Assembly (NCBI GenBank): GCA_021299615.1
Contig: JAJTHC010000027.1
Coordinates: 1 to 24,634 of the forward strand
Source of the DNA: Vampirovibrionales bacterium
GTDB taxonomy: Bacteria; Cyanobacteriota; Vampirovibrionia; Vampirovibrionales; JAJTHC01
Direction of reading: 5' to 3'
DNA: 24,634 nucleotides
The position numbers and the translations under genes are program-made. The notes under the pieces are model-generated. The model worked only from the letters and a program-made list of their open reading frames with translations. It was not told the origin of the DNA and did no database searches. Shown in pieces: positions 5,224 to 24,553 of this stretch (positions are counted from its first letter, which is position 1; each line of letters starts with the position of its first letter).

Positions 5224-5318
5224 GGCAAGTGTTCCTTTATTTTGAATTAACGCTATTCTAGCCTATTTCAGACGACTCACTTTATTTAACGCCCAATTTT
5301 CCCATAAATGAAGGACGC

Positions 5319-5468
5319 TATAGTGTTTTAAAGAGTTTTCCAGACAGTAGGCTAGACGAGGAGCCTAGATTATTTTGTGAAGAAGTGTAGATAGACCTAC
5401 ATGACTGAACAAAATAATCGTAGCGACAAAGTATAGACACCGTAGGGGAAATTATTTAAAACACTATA
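5319..5468 (+). mobile_element. 150-bp ERIC/MITE-like palindromic element, copy 2
   Basis: Perfect TIR tatagtgttttaaa / tttaaaacactata; 145/150 identical to copy 5 by manual alignment. Confidence 0.9.
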
Positions 5469-5494
5469 TAGAAAGTTCTGCGAAAGGGGAAACC

Positions 5495-5566
5495 CTCATC
5501 CTGAGTGAAACGAAGGATCTCCTAGCCTTTACGGTTTGGGAGATGTTTCGCTATGTTCAACATGAC
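5495..5566. repeat. REP-like palindrome of the 'tcatcctgag-gaa-cgaaggatct...agat--ttcgct--gttcaacatgac' type
   Basis: Imperfect long hairpin (tcatcctgag/ttcaacatga, atctcc/ggagat). Resembles a widespread intergenic palindrome family. Lies 20 nt past the fliI stop and may act as a terminator. Confidence 0.65.
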
Positions 5567-5585
5567 GTCTTGTCTTTTTGTAGCT

Positions 5586-6914
5586 TTATCTAACCGCAAG
5601 TATAGACTTCAACTGTTCCAACGCCTCCTCAAAAGGGACGTTGTCTTGAATGCCTTGGCGTAAAAAATCCATGAGCGGATCATGCAATTTCACCGCACGA
5701 TCCAACGCCGCATTCTGCCCAGCCACATACGCCCCCACCGAAAGCAAGTCTTCATTTTGCTGATACGTCGCCAGCAACCGACGGGCTTCACTCGCCAACG
5801 CCTGATGTTCCGTACCAGCCAAGATCGTGAACAAACGACTGACGGATGCCCCCACATCAATCGAAGGGAAATGGTTGCGTTGAGCCAAATCACGAGACAA
5901 AACGACGTGACCGTCCAACAAACCACGGGTTAAATCGGCAATGGGTTCGTTGAAGTCGTCGCCTTCCACCAAAACCGTGTAAATCCCTGTAATGCTTCCT
6001 TTTTCGCCCATGCCTGTGCGTTCGAGCAATTTCGGCATGAAGGCATACACACTGGGCGGATACCCCCGCGTCGCAGGAGGCTCCCCCGCTGCCAAGCCGA
6101 CTTCTCGTAATGCCATGGCAATACGAGTCACGCTGTCCATCATCAATAGCACTTGTTTGCCTTCATCTCTGAAGTATTCGGCAATGGCAGTTGCCACGAG
6201 TCCAGCTTTTATTTTAACCAAGGCTGGGGCTTCGGCAGTGGCGACCACTAGCACGCTTCGCTTAATGCCTTCTTCACCTAGTGAATGCTGAATAAACTCC
6301 TTGACTTCACGACCCCGTTCGCCAATGAGTGCAATCACGTTGAGATCCGCCTTGGCATTACGAGCCAGCATCCCGAGCGTGGTGCTTTTTCCCACGCCAC
6401 TGCCTGCAAAAACACCGACTCGCTGACCGTAGCCGAGGGTTAAGGTGCTGTCCCACGCTTTTATGCCTGTGGGTAAGATCTCGTCGATTTCTTTGCGGTA
6501 CAAGGGATTCGGCGGTATGGCGGAAGCGTTGTATTCAATGGATGCTTTAGGTAAGCTGGTTTCAGGATTCATGGGATTGCCTAGACCGTCCAAGACATGC
6601 CCAAGCAAGTGAGGTCCCACGCCGACTTTAAAGGGTTCGCCTGTGTTCCAAACTCTCGCTCCGGGATGCAAGGCTTGCATCGAGCCAAGCGGCATCAAAA
6701 GCAAGTGACCGTCTTTAAAGCCCACGACTTCGCTTAGAATGGGATCGATGCGACTGCCTGCTTGTTCAATTTCGCAAATATCACCGAGCTTGGCATTCGG
6801 GCCTTGGGATTCTATCATTAAGCCAATGGTTTTGACGACACGCCCAAAGGCGACATCGTGGTGGCGTTGTCGGTTGGGGATTTCGATGTTTTGCAAGAGG
6901 GCGTCGTTTGTCAT
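5586..6914 (-). CDS. fliI: Flagellar export ATPase FliI
   Basis: Walker A 'AGSGVGKST', 'IALIGERGREV', 'LLMMDSVTR', 'GEPPATRGYPPS', 'LVEGDDFNEPI'. Confidence 0.93.
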   Translation of the reverse strand: MTNDALLQNIEIPNRQRHHDVAFGRVVKTIGLMIESQGPNAKLGDICEIEQAGSRIDPILSEVVGFKDGHLLLMPLGSMQALHPGARVWNTGEPFKVGVGPHLLGHVLDGLGNPMNPETSLPKASIEYNASAIPPNPLYRKEIDEILPTGIKAWDSTLTLGYGQRVGVFAGSGVGKSTTLGMLARNAKADLNVIALIGERGREVKEFIQHSLGEEGIKRSVLVVATAEAPALVKIKAGLVATAIAEYFRDEGKQVLLMMDSVTRIAMALREVGLAAGEPPATRGYPPSVYAFMPKLLERTGMGEKGSITGIYTVLVEGDDFNEPIADLTRGLLDGHVVLSRDLAQRNHFPSIDVGASVSRLFTILAGTEHQALASEARRLLATYQQNEDLLSVGAYVAGQNAALDRAVKLHDPLMDFLRQGIQDNVPFEEALEQLKSILAVR

Positions 6915-6967
6915 GGCGTTTCCTTAACAGTTCTTACTTATTATATAGAATCCTGCCAAAGAAAAGA

Positions 6968-7112
6968 TACAGCCGTTGAAGGAGTTTTGTAAATCTCTTC
7001 TTAGGAGCCTAGACTCGCAGATGTGTGAGATGTACAGAAGTGTACATAAGCACATCGAAAATCGTAGCGACAACGAAGAGACACTATACAGAAAATTATA
7101 AACTTGACTATA
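6968..7112 (+). mobile_element. Divergent copy 3 of the 150-bp element
   Basis: Keeps gagtttt, aggagcctaga, aatcgtagcgacaac and the tacagaaaattataaac...tata end. The central arm has a different sequence but still pairs (gatgtg/cacatc; atgtaca-gaag-tgtacat). Left arm is degenerate. Confidence 0.8.
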
Positions 7113-7142
7113 CCTAATAATATCAAAAAGTTTCATAGATTT

Positions 7143-8671: not shown

Positions 8672-8810
8672 CATAGCTGAATTTAGATTTTTCTATACAG
8701 TAGGCTAGACTAGGAGCCTAGATTATTTTGTGAGGGCGTGTAGACAGACCTACATAACAGAACAAAAAAATCGTAGCGACAACGAAGACGCCAGACGCTA
8801 TTTAAAACAC
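8672..8810 (+). mobile_element. Copy 4 of the 150-bp element (variant right half)
   Basis: Core conserved; right side reads aacgaagacgccagacgctatttaaaacac, as in copy 6. Confidence 0.85.
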
Positions 8811-8815
8811 GAATG

Positions 8816-8851
8816 ATACCAATTAAACGATTCAATAGCGTCTGGCACTTC
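8816..8851 (-). repeat. Solo inverted right arm of the element
   Basis: Reverse complement gaagtgccagacgctattgaatcgtttaattggtat matches the right end of copy 6 (gaagacgccagacgctatttaatcgtttaattggtat). Confidence 0.8.
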
Positions 8852-11683: not shown

Positions 11684-11833
11684 TATAGTGTTTTAAAGAG
11701 TTTTCCGTACAGTAGGCTAGACGAGGAGCCTAGATTATTTTGTGAAGAAGTGTAGATAGACCTACATGACTGAACAAAATGATCGTAGCGACAAAGTATA
11801 GACACTGTAGGGGAAATTATTTAAAATACTATA
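11684..11833 (+). mobile_element. Copy 5 of the 150-bp element
   Basis: TIR tatagtgttttaaa / tttaaaatactata (one G-T pair); full core. Confidence 0.9.
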
Positions 11834-13461: not shown

Positions 13462-13610
13462 TATAGTGTTTTAAAGAGTTTTCCGTACAATAGGCTAGAC
13501 GAGGAGCCTAGATTATTTTGTGAGGGCGTGTAGACAGACCTACATAATAGAACAAAATAATCGTAGCGACAACGAAGACGCCAGACGCTATTTAATCGTT
13601 TAATTGGTAT
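13462..13610 (+). mobile_element. Copy 6 of the 150-bp element (mismatched arms)
   Basis: Left arm tatagtgttttaaa; right end ...gccagacgctatttaatcgtttaattggtat abuts the stop codon of the 13610-13975 gene. Confidence 0.87.
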
Positions 13611-24397: not shown

Positions 24398-24553
24398 ATA
24401 CCATTTAAACGGTTAAATAATTTCCCCTACAGTGTCTATACTTTGTCGCTACGATTATTTTGTTCAGTCATGTAGGTCTATCTACACTTCTTCACAAAAT
24501 AATCTAGGCTCCTCGTCTAGCCTACTGTACAGAAAACTCTAAACTTAGCGATA
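24398..24553 (-). mobile_element. Copy 7 of the 150-bp element, inverted
   Basis: Reverse complement of the full core, near-identical to copies 2 and 5 internally, with different outer arms. Confidence 0.9.

Follow-up and report, generated by a model that had tools for sequence, protein, structure and literature searches.

The flagged stretch at 6968-7112 is probably a 5'-truncated copy (~7002-7112) of a non-autonomous MITE of about 150 bp and of the IS630/Tc1-mariner kind, which inserts at TA, duplicates the TA, has arms drawn from TIR lineages and carries a core conserved as structure. It is one of seven copies, each of about 150 nt, that repeat detection and alignment confirmed in the window, that is, in the whole 24,634-nt stretch of DNA that was analyzed. 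The window is contig C219 of an assembly (G000) of 1.72 Mb in 281 contigs, 82% complete and with a GC content of 45.7%. Each element is built of three modules: the outer arms (TIRs), two junction motifs (J5 and J3) and a central hairpin. As a genome feature the element is ordinary. Selfish repeats of this kind are known already; this family is a new one, and its conserved core is unusual.

The truncated copy at 6968-7112

Several features originally predicted for this copy, the third in the window, were present in the sequence. The stem gatgtg/cacatc and the perfect hairpin atgtaca-gaag-tgtacat were both found, as were the two junction motifs, J5 (AGGAGCCTAGA) at 7003-7013 and J3 (ATCGTAGCGACAA) at 7061-7073, each read on the plus strand. 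The 47-nt centre between them (7014-7060, plus strand) holds the stem and the apical hairpin. J3 is followed on the same strand by a right arm (7074-7112) with an IS630-type TIR of arm type B2, which aligns with the right arms of the other copies and ends in CTA plus TA. Here the duplicated target is this terminal TA, as was demonstrated for copies 5 and 1. The central arm of copy 3 had been described as replaced. It belongs instead to a subfamily, centre type II, that accounts for ~120 of the ~275 cores in the genome (~44%) and is also found in other species; the other centre type of G000 is type I. Nor are the junction motifs invariant, as had been proposed, since J3 has a second allele, ACCCGAGCGACAA, in 37 copies of the genome and further junction-motif variants were seen in other genera.

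The left side of the copy had been misread. Positions 6968-7002 (plus strand), which had been counted as its left arm, are native intergenic DNA: over 6935-7003, 59 of 69 positions (86%) are identical to the orthologous site of a related genome, G007, where the element is missing, and this identity is near the gene-level value of 88%. Similar sequence occurs in G005 and G008, and all three genomes continue from the native stretch into unrelated native sequence, with the element absent. Furthermore, in no other genome of the genus do the genes that flank copy 3 lie next to each other, which marks a synteny break. Because 6968-7002 is native and the synteny is broken here, copy 3 is taken to be a 5'-truncated element fused to native DNA. 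The breakpoint lies just upstream of J5, at ~6999-7003, and the left arm was lost through deletion or rearrangement at the synteny break. The reciprocal product of such a rearrangement was not found, the sequence past the G007 breakpoint having no match in the incomplete G000. The supposedly new stem tctcttc/gaagaga (6994-7000/7075-7081) is thus a pairing of native flank with the right arm of the element rather than an evolved stem, and since one of its strands is native DNA it is no evidence of selection.

Copy 3 folds weakly, with z values of about -2.8 on the plus strand and -3.0 on the minus strand; full copies have z values of -8 to -11 relative to shuffles, and their plus strand is always the stabler. 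In the public sequencing runs, copy 3 is fixed in three lake populations, and no population-level empty sites were seen in four runs.

An AGGAG followed after 13 nt by an ATG or GTG at a fixed place was noticed at 7003-7100 and in other copies with centre types I-III. It opens a frame of 19-26 codons, which in centre types I and II crosses J3 with the residues Asn-Arg-Ser-Asp. A conserved micro-ORF was rejected on inspection, because types I and II differ in the frame in which their homologous apical hairpin is read and type IV has no start codon; the AGGAG-started frame is probably fortuitous.

The element family and its insertion at TA

The other six copies differ mainly in their arms and completeness. 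Copies 1 (1412-1561), 2 (5319-5468) and 5 (11684-11833), all on the plus strand, are full length; copy 1 has cognate arms, copy 2 has arm type A with centre type I, and copy 5 also has arm type A. Copies 4 (8672-8810) and 6 (13462-13610), likewise on the plus strand, are hybrids. The left arm of copy 4 is B-type and its right arm is a C-type remnant, with a solo inverted C-type arm following at ~8816-8846, and copy 6 joins an A-type left arm to a C-type right arm, so that its outer arms are non-complementary. Copy 7 (24398-24553) is in inverted orientation, on the minus strand, and has a hybrid right arm.

A profile built from the seven window copies gave 405 nhmmer matches in the 1.72-Mb genome. 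Just 2 of these lie in long ORFs, indicating that the element is non-coding and mostly intergenic, and 54 lie at contig ends; because so many copies are found there, the family probably accounts for the break-up of the assembly into its 281 contigs. The J5 motif occurs at 275 exact sites genome-wide, or 338 if up to one mismatch is allowed, and 238 copies have both J5 and J3, at a spacing of 47 nt in 204 cases. The 189 copies that were analyzed individually are all unique, with nearest neighbours from 2 to ~40 positions apart. A scan of public genomes showed that several freshwater Vampirovibrionales MAGs carry the element. Within the genus it is present in all nine genomes (9/9), at 5-248 copies each, and it also occurs in three other genera of the same family-rank taxon. 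In a second family within the order, a covariance model search returned faint matches to diverged forms of the element; in 25 genomes of a third it returned none.

Insertion at TA was read from orthologous sites. For copy 5, G008 has a clean empty site in which a single TA stands in place of the TA-element-TA of G000, the flanks being otherwise collinear. The corresponding sites of copy 1 are empty in G007, G005 and G002 and fit a TA duplication, and the site orthologous to copy 2 is without the element in G008 and G005. The ends resemble those of IS630-type insertion sequences of the same genus. Intact ISs in G008 and G011 are 933-934 bp long with termini TATAG...CTATA, and a significant match (z values of 6.2-7.6) links arm type E to the 29-nt TIR of the G008 IS. 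A derivation of the core from the interior of such an IS was rejected, since in local alignments of the ends of three ISs with seven element types the 29-nt TIR was the only match.

Fragments of DDE_3 (IS630-family) transposase genes were found in G000 at two contig ends, and the IS end beside them looks, by eye, like arm type B. These fragments, at C199:2338-2677 and C12:1-130, are the only IS630-family transposase sequences of the genome and both halt at the end of the contig. The end of C199 reads TATAG, which suggests that the gene was interrupted by a MITE copy or by an assembly break. A search of G000 for matching termini 300-3500 bp apart, as a parent element would have, returned nothing convincing, and a complete autonomous partner with matching ends was not found in this 82% complete genome. 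Across genomes, copy number does not track the transposase count; G011 has 42 transposase matches and 2 canonical cores.

Hairpin-rich structure, a conserved internal motif and hints of strand specificity are also what might be seen in a REP- or PATE-like hairpin element moved as ssDNA by a Y1 (HUH) transposase of the IS200/IS605 or RAYT type. However, neither Y1_Tnp (PF01797) nor TnpB (PF07282) had a match in G000 (82% complete), and orientation relative to replication proxies is biased weakly at most. Moreover, the termini are true inverted repeats accompanied by a duplicated TA, and Y1 elements generate no such duplication. This explanation is considered highly improbable, and the IS630/Tc1-mariner kind of MITE is preferred.

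Type A copies at non-orthologous sites in G008, G002, G005 and G007 are 97-99% identical to copy 5 (11684-11833), above the 83-92% identity of orthologous genes from these genomes. Such high identity suggests either that an active subfamily spread horizontally in recent times or that its master copy is under very strong constraint. At least three elements (on contigs C85, C155 and C224 of G000) sit in the same TA in the apical 3' half of another element (...CTACA|TA|...), and many elements adjoin each other and share one TA. Elements that are nested and abutting in this way are therefore preferred targets for one another, and such mutual targeting could supply mosaic arms.

Three further features of the window were recorded. 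A second, unrelated repeat with inverted GGATCTCC...GGGAGAT-like segments adjoins copy 2 at 5469-5606; BLAST returned 15 further segments elsewhere in the genome, 78-97% identical and many of them partial. This repeat is missing at the orthologous site of G008 and G005, and a related insertion is found at the G008 site of copy 1. Between two genes, at 2741-2868, there is a 9-bp tandem array of AAACTAAAG-like units with 14-nt interruptions. The minimum of the cumulative GC skew falls at 17-19 kb, where gene orientation flips from minus to plus (17307/17643), a pattern compatible with a replication origin nearby.

Variation of the arms and conservation of the core

The TIR and subterminal sequences that had been quoted for copies 1, 2 and 5 are present and pair as claimed. 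At least eight arm types were distinguished in G000. In subfamily consensuses, 29-33 of the ~39 positions of cognate arms are Watson-Crick paired. Full flanks were available for 187 copies; the outer arms are clearly cognate in 96 of them and essentially non-complementary in 54 (~29%), including copies 4 and 6. The arms freely reassort, and the variants form discrete subfamilies or modules.

Complementary arms of different sequence had been taken as a sign of selection on a folded strand. As transposase-binding TIRs, however, the two arms of a mobile copy would have to fit the same enzyme and are inherited together, and arms that differ between copies and yet remain complementary would therefore be expected without a single-strand fold. 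The arm types would accordingly represent several TIR lineages, in each of which both ends fit one transposase on double-stranded DNA. Recognition by the transposase does not on its own account for the retained complementarity of variable TIR positions; joint inheritance together with specificity probably does. The original prediction had allowed that a few MITE subfamilies might explain the variants. This largely holds for the arms; the core helices covary across genera.

Changes in individual copies were followed along minimum-spanning-tree edges of at most 12 differences. One-sided changes numbered 433 and two-sided changes 26, against ~10 two-sided changes expected, and 13 of the 26 exchange one Watson-Crick pair for another. 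The excess is real, yet a small number of ancestral compensations that recombination reshuffled could lie behind it. A bias toward G-T pairs on the plus strand, also part of the original prediction, is weakly present in raw counts (489 vs. 391) but absent from polarized private changes: relative to near relatives, Watson-Crick pairs became G-T 44 times on the plus strand and 42 times on the minus strand. In the consensus arms, G-T sites number 10 on the plus strand compared with 2 on the other, although these sites are not independent. Private changes fall in the junction motifs at about half the rate of the arms, as judged by eye from the per-column table. Individual copies mostly do not behave as if selected for structure, and recent changes mostly break pairs. 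The constraint appears to act on propagating lineages and not on each inserted copy.

The non-TIR core, in contrast to the arms, is conserved as structure, with a junction helix, P2 and an apical stem (P3), in five or more genera and within several arm classes that are unrelated. One and the same core is found between at least three unrelated TIR classes, whose sequences start TATAG..., ATACC... and TAGACCTCTTGC.... P2 has four sequence types across genera (centre types I-IV), all of them paired, and point compensations convert GATGTG/CACATC to GATGAG/CTCATC, GAGGTG/CACCTC, GATATG/CATATC and GGTGAG/CTCACC. In the apical stem, GTGTAG/CTACAT is changed to GTGTAC/GTACAT, GTTTAG/CTAAAT, GTTTAC/GTAAAT and GTGTAT/ATACAT while the closing G.T is kept; a common variant, GACCAT, weakens this stem. 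The junction helix GGAGC/GCGAC is replaced by GGAAT/ATGAC with both G.A oppositions (a tandem G.A) retained. K-turn, loop E and tetraloop-receptor readings of the junction were rejected on inspection because the consensus motifs do not fit.

The pairing was quantified on 52 sequences in an alignment fitted to the model, which favours structure; here standard pairs make up 98.2% of cells, compared with 77.9% in shuffles. Nine of the 12 pairs change on both sides, in 122 cells as opposed to 33.9 +/- 6.1 in shuffles, and none of the 500 shuffles reached so high a count. The covariation score was 0.527, against 0.003-0.09 with slid partners, a control that retains the relatedness of the sequences. 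When centre types were mixed in a plain MAFFT alignment, the RNAalifold consensus was weak (-4.15 kcal/mol) because P2 of type I and P2 of type II are not column-homologous.

Paired changes of this sort could also arise with no selection on structure, if template switching or intrastrand conversion maintained a palindrome and the copies were inherited from a few palindromic masters. The whole element is near-palindromic and made of discrete modules, and many of the two-sided changes could be few ancestral events that were reshuffled. Copy 3, which is dead, has its apical hairpin turned into a perfect 7-bp palindrome, and one copy with its centre inverted between the stems attests to an event at the DNA level. 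In that copy, at L079:3919-4017 in another MAG, a type I centre lies inverted between intact J5 and J3, the product expected from recombination across the P2 inverted repeat. Conversion, however, should erase the tandem G.A, the 3x3 junction loop and the apical G.T, all of which persist across genera while their neighbours covary, and the dominance of one-sided, pair-breaking changes in recent times indicates that any correction is inefficient. Without selection, correction of the palindrome alone leaves the conserved non-complementary features unexplained and is considered unlikely, and conservation of the core as structure is retained as the preferred reading.

The original prediction placed a folded junction in opposition to a transposon end. 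A conserved folded junction is a fair description of the core, but the element is a transposon, as its TA duplication and IS630-like TIRs attest, and the choice between a folded nucleic acid and a transposon end is a false one.

Possible roles of the core and comparison with known systems

The most likely role of the core, we infer, would be that of a DNA module, folded or bent and acting in cis, through which the two ends of so short an element are helped to meet. With a length of only 150 bp, the element would have its ends brought together by the core in the way that the IHF site acts in Correia elements. Second and less likely is a transcript hairpin that undergoes processing. If the core is needed in cis, it would offer a handle on how the two ends of very short elements are brought together, or on an unrecognized structure-dependent step in transposition of the Tc1/IS630 type.

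The signals of strandedness are not predicted by a cruciform or duplex-DNA role. The fold of the J5-to-J3 (plus) strand is stabler in all four centre types, the arms show the 10 to 2 division of G-T sites, and the G.T and tandem G.A are features of the J5-to-J3 strand alone. A core of ~70-100 nt may be an autonomous module, with its tandem G.A helix, two covarying stems and G.T, whose fold as ssDNA or RNA on one strand is needed for propagation and which is retained or repeatedly re-fitted between unrelated IS630-type ends in two Vampirovibrionales families. This proposal is advanced tentatively and is regarded as doubtful. Were it true, Tc1/IS630-type MITEs would spread by way of a step that is single-stranded or depends on structure, and such a step lies outside the accepted mechanism.

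The same strand preference, seen for RNA folds in all full copies tested and in the four centre types, might instead reflect a strand-specific functional RNA on the J5-to-J3 strand, be it a regulator, a processing signal or a ribozyme, that the arms merely spread. The apical stem is closed by G.U in 47 of 51 aligned sequences, covarying pairs flank the tandem G.A, and unpaired positions of the plus strand are purine-rich. An exact 203-nt metatranscriptome contig covers 6960-7162, although it is unstranded and could come from DNA. Against this reading, the search for an internal promoter gave none that was convincing, just weak AT-rich matches in the arms, and no internal terminator was found in the element. 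Orientation downstream of genes is unbiased (180 antisense vs. 172 sense); the antisense arrangement of all seven window copies (7/7) is a local accident, orientation relative to genes being unbiased genome-wide. Relative to local GC skew the division is 130 vs. 97 (p = 0.03), and it is not significant where the skew is stronger. Individual copies gather pair-breaking changes with no preference for G-U, and the common GACCAT variant weakens the apical stem. Rfam 15 gave no match at the gathering score over the whole window; with E values up to 10 searched, there were chance-level matches alone in 5300-7130 (E 3-6). The suggestion that the fold has an activity of its own, such as self-cleavage, is thus unsupported, and a functional RNA is judged quite unlikely. 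A cis-acting DNA module stays the favoured role. For RNA discovery based on covariation the family is a caution, in that the inverted-repeat ends of transposons combined with subfamily structure mimic compensatory evolution.

Among known repeats, the Correia elements of Neisseria (CREE/NEMIS) are alike in being ~100-160 bp long, non-coding, mostly intergenic and present in hundreds of copies. They duplicate a TA target and have termini starting TATAG. Their conserved core is likewise flanked by inverted repeats, different ends are combined in their subtypes, and their transcripts fold as hairpins. The inverted repeat, the conserved core, binding of IHF and binding or cleavage by RNase III have been described for them (PMC2649163). 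The present element differs in belonging to another phylum, in its unrelated sequence and in being near-palindromic as a whole. In its core, unlike that of Correia elements, helices covary, the junction has a tandem G.A and a G.T is fixed across genera; no IHF-like site is recognizable there by eye. Moreover, a plausible transposase family is present here in the same genus, in the form of IS630-like ISs with related TIRs.

ERIC and other enterobacterial imperfect-palindrome repeats are similar in size (~127-150 bp), in being imperfect palindromes located in transcribed intergenic regions and in their modular insertions. The family had originally been called ERIC-like, but ERIC is not known to have a TA duplication or IS-like TIRs.

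Further parallels are the IS630/Tc1-mariner MITEs in general, such as Nezha of cyanobacteria and the Stowaway-like elements of plants, which share the TA duplication, DDE-related TIRs, small size, high copy number and stem-loop transcripts; MITE transcripts are known to form stable stem-loops (PMC10969869). In those elements, however, the TIRs are usually conserved while the interior drifts, whereas here the termini are the most variable part and the interior is conserved and covarying. The pattern of conservation is thus inverted relative to most transposon families, with ends that are swapped among unrelated TIR classes around a structured interior that remains constant.
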